Source: Pelagomonas calceolata (lineage: Eukaryota). Taken from it: a stretch of DNA of 64,000 bases. Shown piece by piece: positions 17,203 through 28,508 of the stretch. The notes under the pieces are model-generated. The model did not search any database. It saw nothing but the letters and a program-made list of their open reading frames with translations, and was not told where the DNA came from. The stretch lies in contig CAKKNE010000004.1 in assembly GCA_918797485.1 (NCBI GenBank), forward strand, positions 3,348,001-3,412,000, written 5' to 3'. The position numbers and the translations under genes were made by a program. Position 1 is the stretch's first letter. The number at the start of each line of letters is the position of its first letter.

Positions 17203-17224
17203 GCTAGCGCTGTAAGACACTAGC
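17203..17224 (-). promoter_or_regulatory. CTAG-dyad upstream motif
   Basis: + strand GCTAGCGCTGTAAGACACTAGC. Confidence 0.7.
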
Positions 17225-17354
17225 AAACGTCGAGCGTCGAGCTCGAGCGCGAAAAGGCAGCAGCCCGAGCGCTCGCGCTGCTTGCGCGAGACGCGCACCG
17301 TCGCAGCGCTGTAACACGTGCCCATTATTACTGCTTGGGCAGCCTTATCGAACG

Positions 17355-19007
17355 ATGCGCAGCCTGTCACTACTCATCCTGATCTACGACGCCATCGCAG
17401 ACGAGACCTTCGTGCCAAGAACATTAGTAGAAACGGACGACATCCCTCTCAATGGCGAGGACTCTACTGATGCCGGCGCGGCCTTGGTGAAAAGTGGCGC
17501 CTACGCGGAGCTCCGCCAAGCAGCACAAACGACCAGCGCTACATTAGAACTGCGAGCGAACGCCGCGCTCACTTACCTACTCGAGGGCGATCTGACCACC
17601 GCGGACATCGTGCTCTCGCATTTAGCAAGGTGGTGCCGCACGAAGTGGAACAAGACGCTGCCGGATAATGATGAAATAGCGTGGCTCCACGCGCCGTGCG
17701 GGGCCGTCAAGAAGAACTTATTCTGGACCTTGGAGACGCGCGAGACGCACTTCCAGCTCTGGGACCTGCAGGAGGAGATCATGGACACGTACAAAGCGAG
17801 ATTGCGTGCTGCCCTGCGCGGCGTCGGCACGTCAGAAGGAAAAGCGCTCTCGGTCTACGACGTGGGACTAGGCGACGCCGTCTGCAAGCACCGCACGTTA
17901 CAAGAGCAGATCCAGAACCCCTGTTCCCCAACGATGCACGGGTCCGCGGCCACAACCCTGAAGGTGGAAGACGCCTACCTGGATCTGTTGAGACGGGGCC
18001 TGACGAATTTTTTGCACGCGGACTGGCAGAACATGGACTGGCGGCCCTACCTCGAGGAGGAAGGTTTAACACATGACGCAAAGGCCTGTTCGGTACAGGA
18101 GCTGTCGCACGTGCCACCGGCCCAGGCCTGCGAGCAGCCCTGGGGTCCGGCCTGGCGCGCCGCCGGCGTGTCTGGATTGGCCTCGGGAAAGGAGGGCGAG
18201 GAGGCCGAGCGGCAGAGGAGGCGCTTCCAGACGACGTTGGCTGTTGCCGACTTAGTTCATTTGGAGGTCGTCGTGGACACTATTTTAACAGATAATGTAA
18301 AGGGCGACTTCATGGAGGCCGGCGTCTTTAGGGGAGGCGCCTGCATCATGCTGAGGGGGCTCCTGGCAGCTAAACGGGACGTGCATCGCAGAGTGTACGT
18401 CGCGGACTCGTTCGCGGGCATCCCGCCGCCGCGGCGCGCCATCGAGGACGTGTCGACGGGCAAGGTCCTGGATCCGGAGCTCGACCCGACGTTTGATTGG
18501 GTGGATCGGTTTGTGGCGGGCGAGGATTTGGTGCGGTACAACTTCCGGCGGTACGGGCTGCTGGACGATCGCGTTCGATTTTTGAGGGGCTTCTTCAACG
18601 AGAGCCTGCCGCCGGTTTTCGGGTCCACGTCGACAGAACGACCTGTTACAATCAACAATGCCCCGACTCTAGCGTTATTGCGCATCGACGCCGACGCCTA
18701 CGACGGTGTGCTGGACGCTCTGGAGGGCGCCTACCACCGCCTGTCGCCGGGCGGCTTCGTGATTATCGACGACTGGCACCTCGGCGGCGCGCGCGCGGCG
18801 GTCCACGCGTTCCGGCGGCGGTTTTCCATCAAAGGCCCGATCCGGTCGTCGCCGTCGGATTTGGTTCTCACGTGTTCAACGGATCTGACGGCGGTGGCGT
18901 CCTGCGCCACGGGCCGCGCCTTGCTCGCGCAGAGCAAGGCCTACACGGTGACGGTCCTGCCGCACGTCGCGTACTGGCGGAAGGGCTGGGACGAGCCCGG
19001 GCCCTAG
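17355..19007 (+). CDS. TylF/MycF-family O-methyltransferase with signal peptide
   Basis: GDFMEAGVFRGG, VADSFAGIP, LRGFFNESLP, LLRIDADAYD, LSPGGFVIIDDW. Confidence 0.9.
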   Translation: MRSLSLLILIYDAIADETFVPRTLVETDDIPLNGEDSTDAGAALVKSGAYAELRQAAQTTSATLELRANAALTYLLEGDLTTADIVLSHLARWCRTKWNKTLPDNDEIAWLHAPCGAVKKNLFWTLETRETHFQLWDLQEEIMDTYKARLRAALRGVGTSEGKALSVYDVGLGDAVCKHRTLQEQIQNPCSPTMHGSAATTLKVEDAYLDLLRRGLTNFLHADWQNMDWRPYLEEEGLTHDAKACSVQELSHVPPAQACEQPWGPAWRAAGVSGLASGKEGEEAERQRRRFQTTLAVADLVHLEVVVDTILTDNVKGDFMEAGVFRGGACIMLRGLLAAKRDVHRRVYVADSFAGIPPPRRAIEDVSTGKVLDPELDPTFDWVDRFVAGEDLVRYNFRRYGLLDDRVRFLRGFFNESLPPVFGSTSTERPVTINNAPTLALLRIDADAYDGVLDALEGAYHRLSPGGFVIIDDWHLGGARAAVHAFRRRFSIKGPIRSSPSDLVLTCSTDLTAVASCATGRALLAQSKAYTVTVLPHVAYWRKGWDEPGP

Positions 19008-19110
19008 TTTTTTTCTTCGCGATGGCGTGCCCCTCTACGCCGTCGAGGCGACGCGCGGTCGCGGCGATGGCGTGCTGGTGCCGTATTTATCTTAGCTTAA
19101 GTATAGTTGT

Positions 19111-19245
19111 GTGTCTTACTCTTACTCCGTTACTCCGCGACGCGAGCCCGCGCTCCGCCGTGCGCGTGTGGCGTAATCGACTCCCAAATCGCCGCAGAAT
19201 TAGGTAGCTCGTCAGCCTGCACGCGAGCCGCGGCTTCGGCGGACC
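19111..19245 (-). pseudogene. Decayed duplicate of the 3' end of the Ldh_2 dehydrogenase gene (functional copy at 27111-27222)
   Basis: Reads EAAARVQADELPNSAAIWESIT versus EAAARVQADELPIPKAIWESIT, with several short duplications near the stop. Confidence 0.85.
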
Positions 19246-19403
19246 AGCAAAGCTAAAAGAAAAAAAAACGGGTTTTCTAGCTTTTTGCCGCGCCTTGGGG
19301 CGTAAACCCGTTTTGCAGACTTAGCTAAACTCCGGAATACCAGAGCTGGGTTAAGTCCGCGCCCCGCGGCCCCCGGGCCACGGGAGGGAGCGCGGCCGCG
19401 TCC

Positions 19404-21556
19404 ATGGCCGCAGCGGTGCCCCAAAGGCAGACTCCGCTAAAAAAATGGATCTCTGATGGCTGTGTGTGCGTGAACACGGCCTCCGGCGGGAACGACGACG
19501 TGAACGCTGTACCGGTCGCATTCGTGGGCCTGGAGCTCCTCGCGCTGTGCCGCCGCGGCGGACAAACCCCCGCGTGGGACGAGCCGTCAGTCGCGCCGGA
19601 GGAAGTCTTCTTTAGCGTGCGACGGAGCGCGTTCGTGGCGGTGACGGCGCCGTCGACGCTGCGAGGTTGGGTCAGACCCGACGGCGAGAACTACGCCGAG
19701 GGCCGCGACTTCTTCGTCGTCTCCGCGCTTGTTGGAAGGCGGAGGCTGACGGCGAGCGAAATTTTGAGGAAGAAGACGACCGGGGCGCTGCGCTACGAAA
19801 GCATGGCGCGGCCGCCGCGTCCGCATCGCACGTCCGTCCGTCGACGTCACCCGCGCAGGTATTCATGTCGCCAGGGCTTCTCGGAGCGGTCGTCTTCGCC
19901 GATCGCCGGCGCCGCAGAAGAGCTGGGGCTGCTGCGACTTCGCCGGCCGAGTGGAAGGAGCTCGACGCGCAGGCCGTGGCCCTGTGCCGGCCTCGCTGGT
20001 CCGGCGAGACCAGGCTCGTCCCCGAGACGTTGATCGCGCTGAGCGCCTACGATGGCCCGCCGCGACCGGCCCGGGGCTCGGCGTTCCGAGCCGCGAGGGA
20101 TCTGCTCGCTCGACGCGTCCCGAAGCGCATCGACACGAAGCTGTCGATCGACCAGACGGACGAGCTCGTCGTGACCGCGGCGATCCTCGAGGCGCTGGCT
20201 GGCCGCGAGGAGCCCGACGCCGACCTGCTCCGCACGCTGAAGCCCGGCTTCGCGGACGTTGGTATCGAGCTCGGCGACGTGAGGCAGTTCGGCGACCTAC
20301 GGCTCACCGCGCGGAACGCGGTCTACGTGCACGTCGTCTCGGCCGTCCGCAACCTCCTGCGCGCTCCGCGTCTCTCGCGACCTATCCGGGCCAGCGAACG
20401 CATCGTGGACTGGATGCGGGCGCTCTCAAAGGCGCCGATCCTCGCGCCGGCCGTGCCGAAGCCCGCCAACAACGCGCGGCCTCTGGAGGCCGCGTTGAAA
20501 ATCGTCGCGGCGATGCTGGCGGCGAAGAACGGGCCGACGGCGGCGGCGGAGACTGCGCAGCGCCAGGAGGCGCATCTGCGGGGCGGCGGGCACGACGCCG
20601 CCGCGGACTTCATCCGGGCGCCGTCGACGAACCAGGCGTCCAAGGAATGCGAGCTCGTCGCGGCGGCGTCGATGGCTGTGTTGAAACGGCTACTCAAAGA
20701 CCGCGACGTGACTATTACGAGCGACGCGGGGTCTCAGACGATCGCGGGCGTCGCCCATCACTTCCACGCGTTCCGTATGCTCGCCGTCGTGCCCACGGAG
20801 GCTGCTCCAGCATGGAGGCTGTCGGCCTGGGCGAAACGAGCTGCGGCCGCGCAGGAGCGGGACTCGAGACGGCTGGCGCCGGGGCTCTTCGTCCCGGGCG
20901 ACGCGCCGCCGGGGGACCTCAGCGGTTACAACGCGTATGTTAGGGCAACGGCGGGCTCAGCGCATCAGGCCGTCGCCGACGGCCCGGACAAGTTCGGCGA
21001 GGCCTCCCGAAGCGTCGGCGAACGGTGGAAGGCGCTCGGGCCGATCGGGCAGCGGCCCTACGACGATGAAGCGCGGGACGAGAACGTGGATCGGCTCAAG
21101 GCCCGGGCTGATTACGCGCACGCTTCGGTCCTGTGGGGCGCGTCCCAGGGAGCGCTCCCGGAAGCGCGGGCGCTGATGGCCCAGCCCTACCGGCCGGGCC
21201 TGCCGCAGACCGTTACGGCTGGTGGGCTCTTCGCGTCCGCTTTTCCGATTGATAAAGGGACTATCGCTGCGCACTTCGCCGCGGCCGGCAAGTCGTGGGA
21301 CGAGCTAGATCCTACGGCGCGCCAGGCTTCAGAGGACGCGGCCTCCGATAGAAATAGGGACCTCGCCGCGGCGACGGCCCGGGCGACGCTCGTGCCGCAG
21401 CGGCTCGCCGACCTGGGCGCCGACCGTGACGCGTGGGCGGCCATCGCCGCGCGTGCAGGGGTCCCGGCCCTGCCCACGGCCGAGGCCGTGCGGGCGGAGC
21501 CGCGGTCTCTTCCCGACGCGCTCAACGAGTCGCTGATGCGACTGAATTCGATGTGA
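19404..21556 (+). CDS. Transposase-associated ORF: putative first catalytic Asp plus two HMG-box-like repeats (probable intron ending at 19858)
   Basis: TITSDAGS (D at 20723). HMG-like SGYNAYV...KFGEASRSVGERWKAL...RPYDDEA. Frame change bridged by a CGCAG acceptor; donor uncertain. Confidence 0.55.
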
Positions 21557-21989
21557 CTGCATGACCCGCAGACGCCCCCTACGGAGTGCTTCGATCGCTC
21601 TCGTCATCGCGTCGTTCGTGTCGACGTCCGTATATTTTCGCAAGCGCGCACAAGGCGCATCGTAATAACATGACCATCATCCCATTTGACTAGTACCATT
21701 CGGCCGGCGCGGACTCCGCGCTGAGGCACGCCGCTGCTGCGTCCAGCTAGAATCCGTACCGCCAGGCGTGAAGTGGCTCCGCGGCCTTCGGACGCGTCCC
21801 GAGAGACGCGTATTTTCACCTGAAAACCCGTCGCCTCTCACAAACCGATTTGCTCTGCCGCGCCTCCCCGCCGTCCTCCGTCTCACAGCCCTCCTCAGAA
21901 CTGCTTCAGAGCAAAGCCCCGGGCCAGGGCTTAGGCCATCTTGCTCTGGTGAGGCGGAGGCGGCGCCGCCCGGCGCCGTGCGCGCGCAA

Positions 21990-24421
21990 ATGCGGGATGC
22001 TCATCTGATCTGTCTGAAGGTCGCCGACCGGACCGGCACGCGCTTCGTCGCGTGCGCCAGCTCCGAGTGGACGGTGGCGCAGCTCAAGACGGTGCTGTGC
22101 GCGGCGTCGTTCGGACAGAAAGGCGAGCTCCGCCTGCGCCCTAGCGAGATCGCGCTCTCCCTCTGCTCGGTCCAACTCGCCGACCAGCGGAAGCTCTCGG
22201 ACTACACGTTGGTCCGCGACAGCGTGGTGAGCGTGCGCGTGATCGGCGCCGACGACCGCAAGCCGCCCGGCCACCTGCCGAAGTGGCTGAGCGACGTGGA
22301 GCTGTCTATTGTGAGCTGTCCCCTCGCGATGGTGGGCTGCAGCAGGAAGGCGGACGGCGAGCTCGTCGCCGAGGCCTTCCAGGAGGCGCTGGAAGCCTTC
22401 GGCCCCGTCGACCTCCAGCAAGTCGGCGCCTGGACCGTGGACGGCGCCGGCGACGGCAAGGTCGCGCGGCGCGTGCTAGCGGTCTTGCAGCGAGAGCTGT
22501 GTCGGAAGGCGCAGGGCGGCGACGAGGACGACGTGGACGACGAGGCGGAGCTGCTCCCACTACGCGTACGACGCCCCCCCATCGGCGGCGACTGCGTGCC
22601 CCATTCTGTGCACGACGCCATCAAAGGTTTGATGCGTCGCTATTTTGCGGCCTGTAAGCACTCCTCGGGCACGAAGTCGAACGATGTGATGAGCCGGTCG
22701 ATCGAGAGCGCCTGCGCGCTCCTGCGAAAGCTGTTGACGGAGGTCCAGCAGAGTGGCGTCGTCGTGGAGGACTGCGCCGAGACGCGCTGGGGCAGCCACG
22801 CCCGCGGAGCGCTTCAGTTGGCCGTCGCTGCGCCGTTCTTGGCCCGGGTCTTCAAAAGCCACTACGGCATCACGGGCGCCGAGGACCTGAAACAGCTAGA
22901 CTGGAAGGAGCGGCGGACCTACTTGATGCTCACGGAGGCGCCCCTACGCCTGACGCTATTTATTTTGGGCGAGCTCCACTACTACCTCTGCCAACCGCTA
23001 CTCGACTGGGCCAACGCGTGCTCGAGCCTGCGCTTCGACGAGATCGGTGCCAAGGTCCTGGAGCTCGGCGCCGCGTCGCTGATGACGCCGTCGGACCGGC
23101 GGGACTTCTTCCCGAACTCCTACGCGTTCGCCTGCGCGGCGGGCTTCGCCGCCTCCGACGTCGACGCCATCGTGACGAAGCACGTGGCCAACTTCATGAG
23201 GTACATGCTGAATCGACTGGACCTCGTGCGGCGGGCGCCGTACTGCTACACGTTCTTCTTCTCGCCCGAGCACCGCCAGCGCCTCGCCCAGTCCCTCGTC
23301 GCTGCGCTAGAGGCCTACGAGCGGGGCGAGGGCGACCTGGAGGCGTTCGAATTCTGCGACACGCTGGGCTTCCGCGAGTCCGACGAGCTGGCCGCGGCGC
23401 TGCGGGAGGTGGCCGCCGGAGGGCCCCTCCCGCGCGTGCTTCACAAGCGCGACTCTGCGTCCGAGCGGTGCACCCGACTCTCATCGGTCGATTTACACGT
23501 AGGCGCATCGCCGAGACCCACGGCGCGCTCACGTTCGGCCAGGCCGCCGCCGAAAACGACGTCCACATCTGCCAGCAGCTCCTCGAGATGAACTTTCGGA
23601 GGCCCTTCATGCTGTCGGTCATGTTCTTCCTCTTCGGCTCGCAGATGGATCTGACGGACGCCATCCTCGAGTCGTTTCCGGACGACTCGCCGGAGCTCCG
23701 GGGCCTTCGCGGCGAGAATCGCGGGCGCTTGGCCGACGAAAAGGCCGCGCGCGGTGCTGAGGACGCGGCGCGGCCCGACGTCGCCATCACGGAGGCGGAC
23801 GCCGCGGCCGTGTTAGATGCGACGACGTCCGCGAGGGACGACGCGACGAAGTCGAAGGACTGCGCCGCGGCGGCGATTGCGATCGCGGAGCGGCGCGGCA
23901 CCCGGGCCATCGCGGAGCTGCCGCCGCACACGGATGGCGCGTGCGCCAGCTGCGGCGACGCGGCGCCTCTGTTGGCGTCGTTCTGCCACGATACGGACTG
24001 CGACTCATACTGCGCGCTCTGCGCGCTTATCGCCGCGAGCCAGCCCGGCGTGGAGTTCTGCTGCCCGTCGTGCGAGACGGCGACGGACCGCTTGCTCGTC
24101 GATGTGGCCGCGCAAACGTTTGTGACAAAGCTCGAGGCTGCCAAGGCCGCGTCCGCGACGGCTCCGGCGAAAAAGAGGGCCCGAGAGAGGGGCGCGTGCT
24201 CCCACTGCCAGACCAACTACGGCGTTCACGTCACGGGCCACAACAAGAGCAAATGCCCGTTCGTCGCGCGCGACGGCGCGCCCGCGCCTGTGCGCCGCGT
24301 CAAGCGCCACCGCGTCGCCGCCGCGGACGACCAGTCACTCTTCTTCGGCGAGACGGCGTTCGGGGACTCGCGGGACGAGACCAAGGGGCCGGCCTTCACG
24401 TCGTGCCTCTGGGGCATGTGA
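21990..24421 (+). CDS. hAT-like DDE transposase core with N-terminal ubiquitin-like domain and C-terminal RING-like and zinc-knuckle motifs (GC-AG intron 23447-23502); true start uncertain
   Basis: WTVDGAG (D 22440), CVPH (22593), ETRWGS (22779), AAAEND (E 23552). Ubl WTVAQLK..LADQRKLSDY. CASC..CHDTDC..CALC..CPSC; CSHC..GHNKSKC. Confidence 0.65.
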
Positions 24422-25272
24422 ATCTGTATCTGGGCCCGCACACGGCGGGTCCTAATTACCATTATTTCTGACTACATTCCTCTCGGGGGGCGGCTCGCGG
24501 CGAGCACTCGGTTCGCGCCGCGCCGCGCGCCGTGCCGACGCGGCCTCGGACACGGTGCGTCGCTGGGGACCGCGCCCCGGCCGGAACCGCGTCGCACGTA
24601 ACTTTCACCGGGCCGACCCGACGGCCTCGACGCGGGGGGCGCGCGGCCGCGCGGACGCGCCGCCGTCGCGACCAGCCGCGAGGCCTTGACGGCCGCGGCG
24701 ACGCCGGGCTGCCGCTGCGCCAACCGCTCGCTTCCGGCTAAACCATTTCTGTGGCCGGCGGGGCGCCCTCGGCCGAAAGCGCGAGAACGTCGCGCGGTCA
24801 GCAAAACGCGTGCGTCGCGCCCCGTGCAGCAGTTACGCTGGCGAAGCACTCCTCCAGGTCCCTTCTTTGTAGTCCGGGAGCCGCGGCTCCGCGCGTTGCG
24901 CTGGCGGCGTAATTTACGGCCGTCGAAGGCGCGTCGGGCCCAGGCCGCGCCAAAGGCCGCCCTAGCGTTCCCCGCCAGCGGCGCCTCGAGCAACGCTTGA
25001 CCCAGCCCAGGCCAGGGGGTGTCTGCGGCTACCGCCGGCGCGCAGCAGCCCTCGTATCGAGCCGTGCACGCGCCGCTGGCCTGAAAAAACGGGTTTCCAA
25101 AAAAACCCGGGACGAAATTACGGGTTTGTGTCCCAAGGCCGCGCAGCGGCCTGGTGGATACACGCCGGGGCCGTAGTGACAAAAATTCGCCGCAGATAGA
25201 GGGTCGTCACGCAACAAATCTTGAGCTCTTGTCGAGCATCTGCAGGCCTGAGAAGCTGAGATCTGAATCCAA

Positions 25273-26850
25273 AATGTCCAGCGACGATAGCGGCGTCGAC
25301 GAGACCGGCGTGGACCGCATGGACGTCCGCATCGTTCAACACATGACTCTGGGCGCATTGCCGCACAGCGACGCGGTCCAAGCGCTACTCGCGAGCGACG
25401 GCGACGTACTGGAGGCGTGCGCCAGAGTCGTACCACGGGAGGACCCCCATTTCTCGGACCGGCTCACGGCCGCGGCAGAGGCGGCGAGCGCCGAGGCCGA
25501 CGTCGATGACGCGTTGGACGTGGCCAGCCCTTTGGGCGCGGCGGGATCGATGCAAAACAAATTACGAGAAAACAACCTATCTGCCGGCGGCGACATCGAC
25601 GGCGTCGACGCCTTCGACGCCAGAAGAGCGTCGCGCCGGGCGTCGGATCTGCTCCGCAGAGCATCCTTAGCAGACGACGAGGACGAGGAAGAAGCCGCGG
25701 ACGTGCCACAGATTTACGCGCGCTGGGGCGGCAACGGGAAATCCGACCCAAACACAAGAAAGACGTGGACGCAAGAGGCTCTCGAAACGTACTTCGATAA
25801 ATATGATGACGTCCCATCAGGCCCGGATTTTGAAGCGGGCGGCGGCAGTGCCCGGGTCGCTTCAGAACTACGAAAGATCAAGAAACGTCGTGATAGAGCT
25901 CAGAAGCGGCGCGCCGGCGAACAAAGACTCCAAGCGTTAAGACAGGCCGGTGGCATTTATAGTGGCCCGAACGCCCAGTTCCCGACGGACGGAAATGGAG
26001 TGATCACGAAGGTTAAGAGAGAAGACTGGGAGGCGGGTGGTGGAGATCCGAAGGTCTTCAAGAGCGAGTCACAGCGCTGGCGCACGTGGCATCACGCGTC
26101 CGAGCGGACGGTAGATCTGCGCGAGGCGCCGACCGCCACGGGAAGGGTGCCCAACGCATTCGTATCTCCGGGCCGCAATTACTTTTATTTCTAGAAAATT
26201 GGGCGGTCCGGAACGGCCGAGCGGACTACGGGCGACGCTTGTTGGAGGCGTGCGTGCAGGGCGCGTACGGAACGGCCGGTTTGATTGCGGGCCTCGATCC
26301 GGTGCAGCGCGAGCTGGCTGTTCGAGGCCGCGGCGCAACACGGATGGCGGATCGCCTGGGCGCAAGCAAGGACGAGATCGATGCAGTCAACGCTCAGCTC
26401 GGGGTGCTCGGCCGCGAGTTCTCGGACTTCGTACTGGCGGCGGCGGCGCGCGACGAGTCCCTGCCGTTCTCACTGCAGTTCTGGGACCCCACGGGCGGGC
26501 TGGACGCGCGGATCCACCGCGTCACCGACATAGCAAGCCTCGTCGACGACGACGAGTATAACCACTGGGGCGACTGGACGGACACGGCTCTCAAGTCCCA
26601 GCTCTACGGCGCGCTCCAGTACGGCGCGCGCTTATTGACCGACGATCCAAGTTTAGTTCTGGCCGACGAGGTCGACTCGAGCTGCTTCCGCAATTTTGTG
26701 GACCGCCGGAACAAGTACAATCTCTCCGGCTACGACTGGACGATCTGGTTCGGTTGGATTCCGTGTAGAAGCTTGCACGGGATAGCCTTAGCTTGGTGCC
26801 CCGGTGCCTTCTGGGGATCGACGCGTCTCGAGTCCATCTGTATCTCTTGA
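25273..26850 (+). CDS. Unknown cargo protein(s) with UBA-like N-terminus; frame change near 26190 (pseudogene or unrecognised intron)
   Basis: Overlapping ORFs 25154-26194 and 26086-26850 with protein-like composition; DAVQALLASDGDVLEAC is UBA-like. Confidence 0.4.
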
Positions 26851-27115: not shown

Positions 27116-28508
27116 TTACTCCGCGAGCCCTTGCTCCGCGGTGCGCGTGATCGACTCCCATATAGCCTTCGGAATTGGTAGCTCGTCGGCCTGGACCCGA
27201 GCCGCGGCTTCGGCGGCGGACCGGTCGCCCGGAACTCTCGCGCCCGCGTCCTTGACAGCTTTACAGACGGCGGCGGCCTTTGCGTCGAACTCGTCGACGA
27301 GCGCGTCTGGCTTCACACACAGGAACAGGTGGCCCCAATTCTTGGCGTCCTTTTTGACCTCCTGACCGACGACGGCGCCGCCTGACAGCGCCCCTGCCAA
27401 CAGCTCGACGCACAGGGCTAGACCGGCCCCTTTATGTCCGCCTGTGTGGAAATCAAATTTCGGACCACACTAACTCACTGGTTGATTTCCACACAGGTGG
27501 CGTGCCGAACGTCGCGATGGCTCCTCCATCTAACACAGCGCCCGCGTCCGTCGTCACCTTCCCGCTCGCGTCGTAGGCGACGCCTTCCGCGAGCGGCGCG
27601 CCCGTGGCCTTGGCCGTGAGCACGCCGAAGAGCGCCACCGCCGACGTCGCCATATCAAACGAGAATGGAGCCTGGCCCTTGCGCGGGACCGCGACGGCCA
27701 GGGGGTTCGTGCCGAATACTGGGGAAGCGCCGGCGCTTGGCGCGACCTGTGCGACGCGAGGTTCCATACGCCATCATTGGCGCGAGTCGCAGCGTGAAGG
27801 CACCGTCGGACGCCGGTCGCGGACGAACTCCGGCGAATTGGCCAAGGCGAGGCAGACTAGACCTCGTTTCGCCTGTCGCTCGGCGTAGAATGCGAGCTGG
27901 CCCGACGAGGTTGAGGTGTTGTAGGCGCTCACCACCGCCACCTGTGTAGAAATCAAATTTGACGCCGCGTTCAATCGCGTCGACCTCCACGCCATCGACG
28001 CGACGCTTGCTCGATGGCGTGGCGATGCCGATTCCTCACCGCTCGACGGAGCCAGCACGGCCGCGTCACCGCTGAGAAATGACTTAGTGAAGAAGGATCG
28101 GGTGCATCCGACGCACTGGTTGATCACGTTGTTTTCTAGCGCTTTGTCCGCCGCCAGGTCCGAAGCCGTGACGGCCGCGAGCATGCCCGGAGCTTGATTC
28201 GCATTGATCGCAGCGGACGTCGCCGTCTCGCGTTCGACGACGGGCTTGCCCGCGCCCGGTTGTGGTGCCATGAGTGACGGGTTGAACATTTTCACGAGGC
28301 CTTGGTTGTTGCCGCATAATTCGGCCGCGGTCATGATCTCCGCCTGGACGTCGGCGGCCTCGTCGTCCCATCCGATCATGCGCAGCGCTTGCGCCGTCGT
28401 CGACTGAGCCTCGTGCACAGAGACGGTGACGGTGTCCGCAGCGGAGAGGTGGCGCACTGTGCACACCCTCGTGCGCGACACGGCGCGCATGGCATGGCGG
28501 AGGAGCAT
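27116..28508 (-). CDS. Ldh_2-family (type 2 malate/L-lactate/sulfolactate) oxidoreductase; exons 28508-28128, 27941-27825, 27746-27506, 27441-27116
   Basis: Spliced product has FGTNPLAVAVP, FDMATSAVA, FGGHKGAGLALCVELLAG and RVPG; N-terminus resembles a mitochondrial presequence. Confidence 0.9.
27442..27505 (-). mobile_element. Introner element, short type; 64-nt GC-AG intron
   Basis: Perfect TIR CTGTGTGGAAATCAA / TTGATTTCCACACAG; removal restores FG|GHKG. Confidence 0.85.
27747..27824 (-). other. 78-nt GT-AG intron
   Basis: Removal joins NSPEF|VAPSAG and deletes an in-frame stop. Confidence 0.8.
27942..28127 (-). mobile_element. Introner element, long type with truncated 5' TIR; ~186-nt in-frame intron
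   Basis: Colinear homology with 45931-46130; ends TTGATTTCTACACAG. Donor position tentative. Confidence 0.8.

Follow-up and report, generated by a model that had tools for sequence, protein, structure and literature searches.

A DNA transposon of Pelagomonas calceolata whose hAT-like DDE transposase is probably split over two genes

Does the transposase-like sequence at positions 19404-24421 of this stretch encode one enzyme or two proteins? The stretch, a 64-kb window of GC-rich eukaryotic DNA from Pelagomonas calceolata (the window being the whole stretch analyzed), had been given a sequence-only reading in which a hAT-like DDE transposase carried HMG boxes and a ubiquitin-like (Ubl) domain inside its catalytic fold; a division of the enzyme between two genes and a domesticated protein were named as alternatives. 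We describe here a transposon of 5,844 bp (19294-25137), which has imperfect inverted ends of 18 bp and is flanked by a target duplication of 7 bp. Two plus-strand genes are transcribed from it separately: A spans 19404-21556 and encodes 699 aa, and B spans 21990-24421 and encodes 791 aa. These genes probably encode a hAT-like DDE transposase in two parts, their proteins likely assembling one active site.

Two genes and two transcripts

RNA was surveyed in raw poly(A) reads (three runs of one sample, about 6-12% of each run) and in two sets of RNA contigs, X4 from the same sample as the raw runs and X8 from another study. Joints with fewer than three reads were left unlisted in the scan of the raw runs, so a rare fused A-B transcript could escape it. 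Four related loci (L001-L004) came from a single scan of JGI metagenome contigs. The gene layout is as follows.

19404..19805, plus strand: gene A exon 1, 134 aa, a domain of no recognized family; the L001 copy is 34% identical
19806..19858, plus strand: gene A intron, GC-AG, 53 nt; 7, 11, and 15 reads in the three raw runs, and RNA contigs
19859..21556, plus strand: gene A exon 2, ending at the stop; an invariant NARPL in a helical region, candidate RNase H strands 1-2, HMG boxes
21557..21989, plus strand: intergenic spacer, 433 nt; depth dip, separate contigs
21990..23446, plus strand: gene B exon 1; Ubl domain, strand 3, second Asp, CxxH, RW, helical insertion domain
23447..23502, plus strand: gene B intron, GC-AG, 56 nt; 5, 3, and 1 reads in the three raw runs, and X8 and X4 contigs
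23503..24421, plus strand: gene B exon 2; catalytic Glu, RING-like cluster of eight Cys, CxxC-H-C knuckle

Transcript A starts at about 19340-19355 and has its 3' end near 21650-21675, and transcript B starts near 21868-21884. In the three raw runs, RNA depth at 21504-21720 drops to 1.1, 1.8, and 0.7. The X8 contigs cover 19340-21652 and then 21937-24661, and those of X4 cover 19442-21674 (depth 146) and restart at 21868 (depth 499), with a contig of depth 3 in the gap. No splice joint over 21556-21990 was seen in the three raw runs or the two contig sets, and the same runs gave 33 and 9 reads for the genuine introns of A and B. Because no joint crosses this interval, the depth dips there, and the contigs stop and restart, we conclude that A and B are two genes. 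Of the junctions proposed from the letters alone, the gene B intron and the one suspected at 19858 are indeed spliced, and the possible in-frame intron 21553-21898 is not seen in the RNA. The idea of HMG and Ubl modules inserted in one catalytic polypeptide thus gives way to the alternative of an enzyme split into two genes, to which the relatives described below also point.

The spliced A product matches by eye, over both exons, the 699-aa NCBI protein P0033, a P. calceolata "HMG box domain-containing protein." The transcriptome protein P0005 is the spliced form of gene B, whose intron is missing from the L001 copy. At 21884, five reads of one run carry 25 extra letters before the B transcript start, which are absent from the window and may come from a chimera or a trans-spliced leader. 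Two loose-end read sequences are not present in the window either.

Conservation of the split among relatives

A search of 1.84 billion representative proteins returned 23 relatives of B, several from Aureococcus anophagefferens and most of them unnamed. The protein comparison set comprised 140 sequences, 77 B-like, many of these near-identical or fragmentary, and 65 A-like. Among the relatives, P0066 is a candidate for the unsplit sister. L001 repeats the layout of the window, with A, a stop, a spacer, and B. Its A is 43% identical and retains the exon 1 match, the Asp motif, the HMG boxes, and the stop; its B is 51-53% identical, and the B of L002 has diverged similarly (51%). The L001 spacer is 555 nt long and cannot be aligned with that of the window. 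A third A subfamily, represented by P0100 (763 aa, 12 members, 22% identity), stands alone; it keeps the Asp, and its C-terminal end falls at the matching place in an alignment that was used for C-terminal ends only, exon 1 being misplaced there. The stop of A and the start of B lie at matching places in three subfamilies.

Parts of A and B occur together in only two of the 140 proteins, neither of which has the first Asp followed by B. P0095 has B then A and is missing B's Glu, and the Aureococcus model P0067 has B, A, and the start of B, with the ends of A missing. Both look like deletion or tandem-copy gene models rather than full fusions, and they suggest that A-like and B-like genes are neighbors in two more lineages. 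Viral contigs held no relatives for three queries, six proteins had no match in PHROGs, and the A and B profiles show no similarity to each other.

A single polypeptide with the HMG and Ubl modules between its first two Asp residues could still arise by a rare splice, trans-splicing, or read-through. On paper 122 GT-AG pairs could join the two frames; the depth-3 contig indicates low read-through in the spacer, and the extra letters at 21884 are unexplained. Insertion of a domain into an RNase H fold is described for Dada in the accessible text of PMC3706591. No such joint reached the listing threshold in any RNA set, however, and the matching termini, the unalignable spacers, and the lack of an A-then-B fusion among the 140 proteins argue against it. 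We consider a single chain very unlikely and continue with the two-gene enzyme.

Protein B

The following features of B all lie on the plus strand.

21990-22247, plus strand: Ubl domain, no di-Gly
22302-22325, plus strand: strand 3
22440, plus strand: second Asp (WTVDG)
22593-22604, plus strand: CxxH (CVPH)
22785-22790, plus strand: RW (ETRW motif, 22779)
23552, plus strand: catalytic Glu (AAEND)
23942-24073, plus strand: RING-like cluster of eight Cys
24197-24256, plus strand: CxxC-H-C zinc knuckle

The sequence-only reading had located these motifs and the two Cys-rich regions, along with TITSD (D 20723) and HFHAFRML (20759) in gene A, and all of them are present. Among the 77 B-like proteins, the second Asp is found in 51 of 51 pattern matches and the Glu in 31 of 32. 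CxxH occurs in 51 and RW or RF in 55 (W in 28, F in 27), the remainder being mostly fragments.

By sequence, neither Pfam searches with 25 B-like members (no hAT family) nor PDB searches placed B in a transposase family. The dimerization domain PF05699 had no Pfam match in the 25 members, and PF05699 clusters appeared in the ESM Atlas only at 0.80-0.82, which we take as a lead. The structure of B was approached through an AlphaFold2 model of the L001 protein built from 26 sequences, with a mean predicted local distance difference test (pLDDT) of 59.5; a single-sequence fold of P0002 (pLDDT 37) was not used. The model is confident for the Ubl domain and the helical insertion and poor at residues 87-165 and 490-542, which are the RNase H pieces of B. 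When 995 Foldseek-ranked chains were taken to VIA comparison, the best match was Hermes (Z 11.2, root-mean-square deviation (r.m.s.d.) 4.7, 284 residues), with model residues 106-499 aligned on Hermes 204-573. This range covers the positions of D248 and E572 and not the D180 strand. Foldseek alone ranked Hermes 11th (E 0.044, probability 0.87), and in its viral library a Pandoravirus hAT protein came second (probability 0.98, E 0.013).

The accessible text of PMC6027215 gives D180, D248, R318, W319, and E572 as essential in Hermes, and that of PMC4763223 reports that CxxH is required for hairpinning in Kat1. Because the Hermes match begins at residue 204 and D180 is essential, B appears to be without the D180 strand. 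The model thus gives B a hAT-like fold from strand 3 onward and backs the earlier assignment to a hAT-like DDE transposase by structure.

The predicted Ubl domain was likewise borne out, model residues 3-89 forming a ubiquitin fold (Z about 10, r.m.s.d. 2-2.6 Å). The Ubl DR[TV]G motif lies near the protein start in 46 of the 77 B-like proteins, in clusters down to ~25% identity, and none has a following di-Gly. For the proposed RING-like cluster, the eight-Cys pattern stood (23 of 24 full-length B-like proteins) and a Pfam RING match was not obtained; "RING-like" refers to the Cys pattern only.

Protein A

20723..20725, plus strand: candidate first catalytic Asp (TITSD), the putative equivalent of Hermes D180
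20906..21115, plus strand: HMG box 1, profile matches
21194..21350, plus strand: second, degenerate HMG-like repeat, weak

Two HMG-like repeats had been read from the letters. Box 1 holds, with a PF00505 match at E 8.5e-4 (below the Pfam cut-off) and an A-family profile match to the PDB at E 1e-4. Box 2 is weakly supported: in the window protein it scores 15.0 bits against the box 1 profile, which none of 200 shuffles reaches, and it is not seen in the distant relative P0100, where 80 of 200 shuffles reach the score.

The TITSD Asp is kept in three subfamilies at 22-43% identity. Of the 65 A-like proteins, 40 matched the search pattern in the motif region, and all 40 have the Asp. A long helix precedes this residue, which lies in a hydrophobic strand, and a second strand comes next, an order that we take to resemble hAT strands 1-2. 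No BED finger match was found in the A members or in exon 1. Exon 1 contains a motif, YAEGRDFFVV (19690-19725), that appears as FERDVDFFVV and WVKGIDYTEY in relatives; to us it is reminiscent of ORF6N/KilA-N-like DNA-binding domains, a likeness without a confirming Pfam or PHROG match.

If the element were a pair of the Harbinger or CACTA type, B would be the whole catalytic subunit, with its first acidic residue elsewhere (for example, the Asp of DR[TV]G), and A an accessory DNA-binding or DNA-bending protein whose Asp is not catalytic. The wide conservation of the DR[TV]G Asp is in keeping with such a pair, as are the HMG boxes of A and its lack of a transposase match. The match of the B model to Hermes, however, does not start before Hermes residue 204, and a complete ubiquitin domain takes up the first 89 residues of B, whereas the Asp of A sits in a helix-strand-strand setting just upstream of where the match of B begins. 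An accessory role for A is therefore unlikely in our judgment, and we favor the reading in which A carries the first Asp.

Element ends and insertion sites

The ends were found by comparing L001 and L002, a generic repeat finder having overlooked the imperfect terminal inverted repeats (TIRs).

19287..19293, plus strand: left target site duplication GCCGCGC, same 7-mer at 25138-25144
19294..19311, plus strand: left TIR, CTTGGG-N4-AAACCCGT; pattern only at both ends in 64 kb
24523..25137, no strand assigned: non-coding right end common to two other insertions; 596/615 and 594/615 columns identical
24540..25053, minus strand: antisense transcript in the right end, abundant in RNA reads
25120..25137, minus strand: right TIR; L001/L002 similarity stops at its last base
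25138..25144, plus strand: right target site duplication, the second GCCGCGC copy

When the right end is reverse-complemented, 14 of its 18 bases agree with 19294-19311. The TIR pattern occurs at just two sites in the window, each adjoined by GCCGCGC, a 7-mer found at 0.1% of window positions. Despite their diverged B genes, L001 and L002, both from ocean metagenome contigs, have right ends 97% identical to that of the window over 615 non-coding columns, and from the first base past the TIR the flanks at the three loci are unrelated, containing an unknown gene in the window and genes for a PALP-family enzyme and for GINS Psf1 in L001 and L002. L003 and L004 are 98% copies of the window element that cover the end of A to B. 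DNA depth is flat over the element and its flanks in the DNA contig sets X1 and X3, which indicates one copy in this strain, as judged from read contigs. No joint skipping 19294-25137 was found in four contig sets, and contigs can show presence, not absence. Joints listed at 19080 were considered as an empty-site signal and rejected, being explained by a short genomic repeat.

These data bear on whether the genes have been domesticated, as the sequence-only reading had suggested, or are the non-functional leftovers of a broken transposase. Retention by the host or decay would suit the flat, single-copy depth and the lack of an empty allele in X1 and X3, the expression of the genes, a weak purifying signal, and the existence of deleted and tandem forms (P0006, P0095, and P0067). 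Against this, the ends and target duplication, which the sequence-only reading had missed along with the three different insertion sites, are intact, a near-identical right end recurs at three unrelated loci, and the same split is kept across 22-53% identity, which is not expected from random breakage. We regard domestication or decay as unlikely. It is less likely still that A and B are unrelated neighbors or an assembly artifact: their profiles share no similarity (which is expected either way), yet DNA contigs of X1 and X3 run through the locus, as L003 and L004 do from the end of A to B, and the two genes, enclosed by one set of ends, recur as a pair in L001. L001, L003, and L004 largely dispose of this alternative.

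The right end lies 137-235 nt upstream of the start of a same-strand host gene at all three sites (window, 25137-25274, ATG 137 nt on; L001, 6482-6680, ~200 nt; L002, 3075-3310, ~235 nt), a hint that the element inserts near gene starts. Each element end contains the motif AAAAACGGGTTT, which is found once more a little beyond the left end (19264), and AAACCCG occurs at 21824, upstream of the gene B start; perhaps this is a promoter motif, with which the right end would provide the downstream gene anew. The antisense transcript, inside the 97%-conserved right end, is several-fold commoner than that of gene B. It has no ATG frame of 30 aa and no Rfam family, and four of its reads have unexplained 5' letters; it is possibly a regulatory RNA.

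Some copies are mosaics. The genes of L001 are ~50% identical to those of the window and its right end 97%; P0004 and P0033 are near-identical over the C-terminal two thirds of gene A and diverged at the N terminus. Recombination between subfamilies is the likely source.

Proposed mechanism and its standing

We propose a cut-and-paste enzyme in which the first Asp comes from A, whereas the second Asp, CxxH, RW, and Glu all come from B. In the RNase H fold, strands 1-2 lie between strands 3 and 4; the two-strand hairpin of A would accordingly slot into the middle of the B sheet and complete a two-metal site. The A-B complex would then nick, hairpin the flanks, and insert with a 7-bp stagger (8 in Hermes). 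The roles of the remaining modules are guesses by analogy. The HMG boxes might bend end or target DNA, as HMGB1 bends DNA for RAG; the N-terminal part of A might replace the BED finger in end recognition; the Ubl domain, probably uncleaved because it has no di-Gly, could serve in docking or turnover; and the RING-like cluster could take part in ubiquitin-linked control. As to origin, the break falls exactly where A finishes with its HMG boxes and B opens with its Ubl domain; HMG and Ubl coding DNA was therefore likely inserted into the strand 2-3 loop, and fission came afterwards.

Several observations weigh against this reading. For B, the absence of a Pfam hAT family in all 25 members counts, as does a modest Hermes match, its Foldseek E value being 0.044 and a Z of 11.2 lying within the common range for helical proteins; the low confidence of the model could equally stem from the shallow alignment. 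The Aureococcus model P0062 is without the second Asp (it was not matched by the pattern), and the fragment P0065 has Val in place of Glu. For A, Pfam and PDB sequence searches match HMG and no transposase, and the equation of its Asp with the first hAT Asp draws on conservation, position, and motif resemblance. A stands directly upstream of B as DNA in two subfamilies only; the pairing in two more comes from the chimeric models, and the searches gave no A partner for the remaining B clusters. A single copy defines the target duplication and the left boundary, since L001 begins inside the left end, and the flat single-copy depth without an empty site counts here too. The ratio of nonsynonymous to synonymous substitutions, by simple counting, is 0.36-0.85 (0.85 for A exon 2), a weak sign of constraint.

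Taking these points together, we think it rather likely that the element represents a new group of marine-alga DNA transposons, in which the DDE site is formed by two gene products as an obligate heterodimer split inside the RNase H sheet, with HMG and Ubl/RING-like modules of its own, gene-start insertion, and a RAG-like accessory set. To our knowledge, DDE transposases and integrases are taken to hold all three catalytic residues on one chain. If the reading is true, a second chain can complete an RNase H sheet in trans, with a triad on two genes maintained among proteins 22-50% alike, and the point between strands 2 and 3 would offer a natural split for two-part, AND-gated transposase tools. 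It would also explain why the element is invisible to profile-based annotation, as neither gene matches a transposase family, and would make an autonomous DNA transposon available for testing in a picoalga that is among the most abundant in the ocean.

Neighboring sequences

The host gene upstream of the element (17208-19007) encodes a TylF-family O-methyltransferase (PF05711, E 8e-51). At its 3' end, 19019-19082 is a short sequence repeated many times across the genome, to which many contigs map. A 72-nt direct repeat, 83% identical, lies at 19171-19242, just left of the element, and at 27145-27216. A family of 26-nt palindromic repeats (GCTAGTGTCTTAC...) has about ten copies in the window (7574, 16171, 28610, 29830, 41960, 43126, 51251, 56136, and 59662) and L002 (after 3075), possibly the ends of introner-like elements or miniature inverted-repeat transposable elements. 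A link between the transposon and pelagophyte introners was considered and rejected: the palindromic, intron-type repeat of the window is unlike the element ends, and Aureococcus introners have 8-bp duplications (bioRxiv 2022.06.06.494994, accessible part).

Comparison with known systems

The element resembles hAT transposons (Hermes, Ac, Tam3, and Kat1) in the RNase H-like DDE core and the helical insertion between the second Asp and Glu of the B model, in the CxxH after the second Asp and the RW in the insertion domain, and in its short imperfect TIRs (18 bp; 17 bp in Hermes, according to the accessible part of bioRxiv 2022.09.16.508221). It differs from them in several respects. Its triad would be spread over two genes, the first hAT Asp (D180, strand 1) having a conserved candidate in A and falling outside the match of B, whereas hAT elements have a single transposase gene. 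The duplication, read from the only copy in which both ends are present, is 7 bp and not 8; Repbase is understood to contain 7-bp hAT subgroups, and no confirming statement was found in the literature searched. The ends start with CTTG, no BED finger or Pfam hAT match was found, and HMG, Ubl, RING-like, and knuckle modules are added.

Dada, in the accessible text of PMC3706591, has a C/DxxH-type DDE enzyme, a 6-7-bp duplication, a C-terminal CCHC finger, and in some members an extra domain inside the RNase H fold; it has no TIRs and one protein and targets small RNA genes. The 7-bp duplication, the CCHC finger, and the C/DxxH-type enzyme are shared by our element, which unlike Dada has TIRs, two genes, and sites upstream of protein-coding genes (3 of 3). 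No Rfam family was found at 19000-25400 beyond one chance match (E 0.94).

Two proteins are needed in PIF/Harbinger, CACTA, MuDR, and ProtoRAG/RAG1-RAG2, and RAG1 contains a RING domain and relies on HMGB1 for DNA bending. In the two-gene DNA transposons known to us, a single chain carries all of the DDE triad, and its partner protein is accessory; in our element the proposed division separates the first Asp from the second. The transposases of IS1, IS3, IS5, and IS630 occupy two frames of a single mRNA that frameshifting brings back together, and archaeal PolB and split-intein DnaE are naturally split enzymes, split inteins ligating the chains. These likewise make one enzyme from two reading frames or genes, but in our element there are two mRNAs, a spacer of 433 nt lies between the genes, and we noticed no intein motif.

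The open literature searched yielded no description of a two-gene split transposase or of a Pelagomonas case, which Repbase, subscription journals, or supplements could contain; the accessible text of the P. calceolata genome paper (PMC9481584) names no such element, and its supplements could. We would file the element as a new hAT-like lineage rather than a member of hAT. It stands outside hAT because it has neither the single gene nor the 8-bp duplication and no BED finger was found, and outside Dada because TIRs are present and the sites are not RNA genes.

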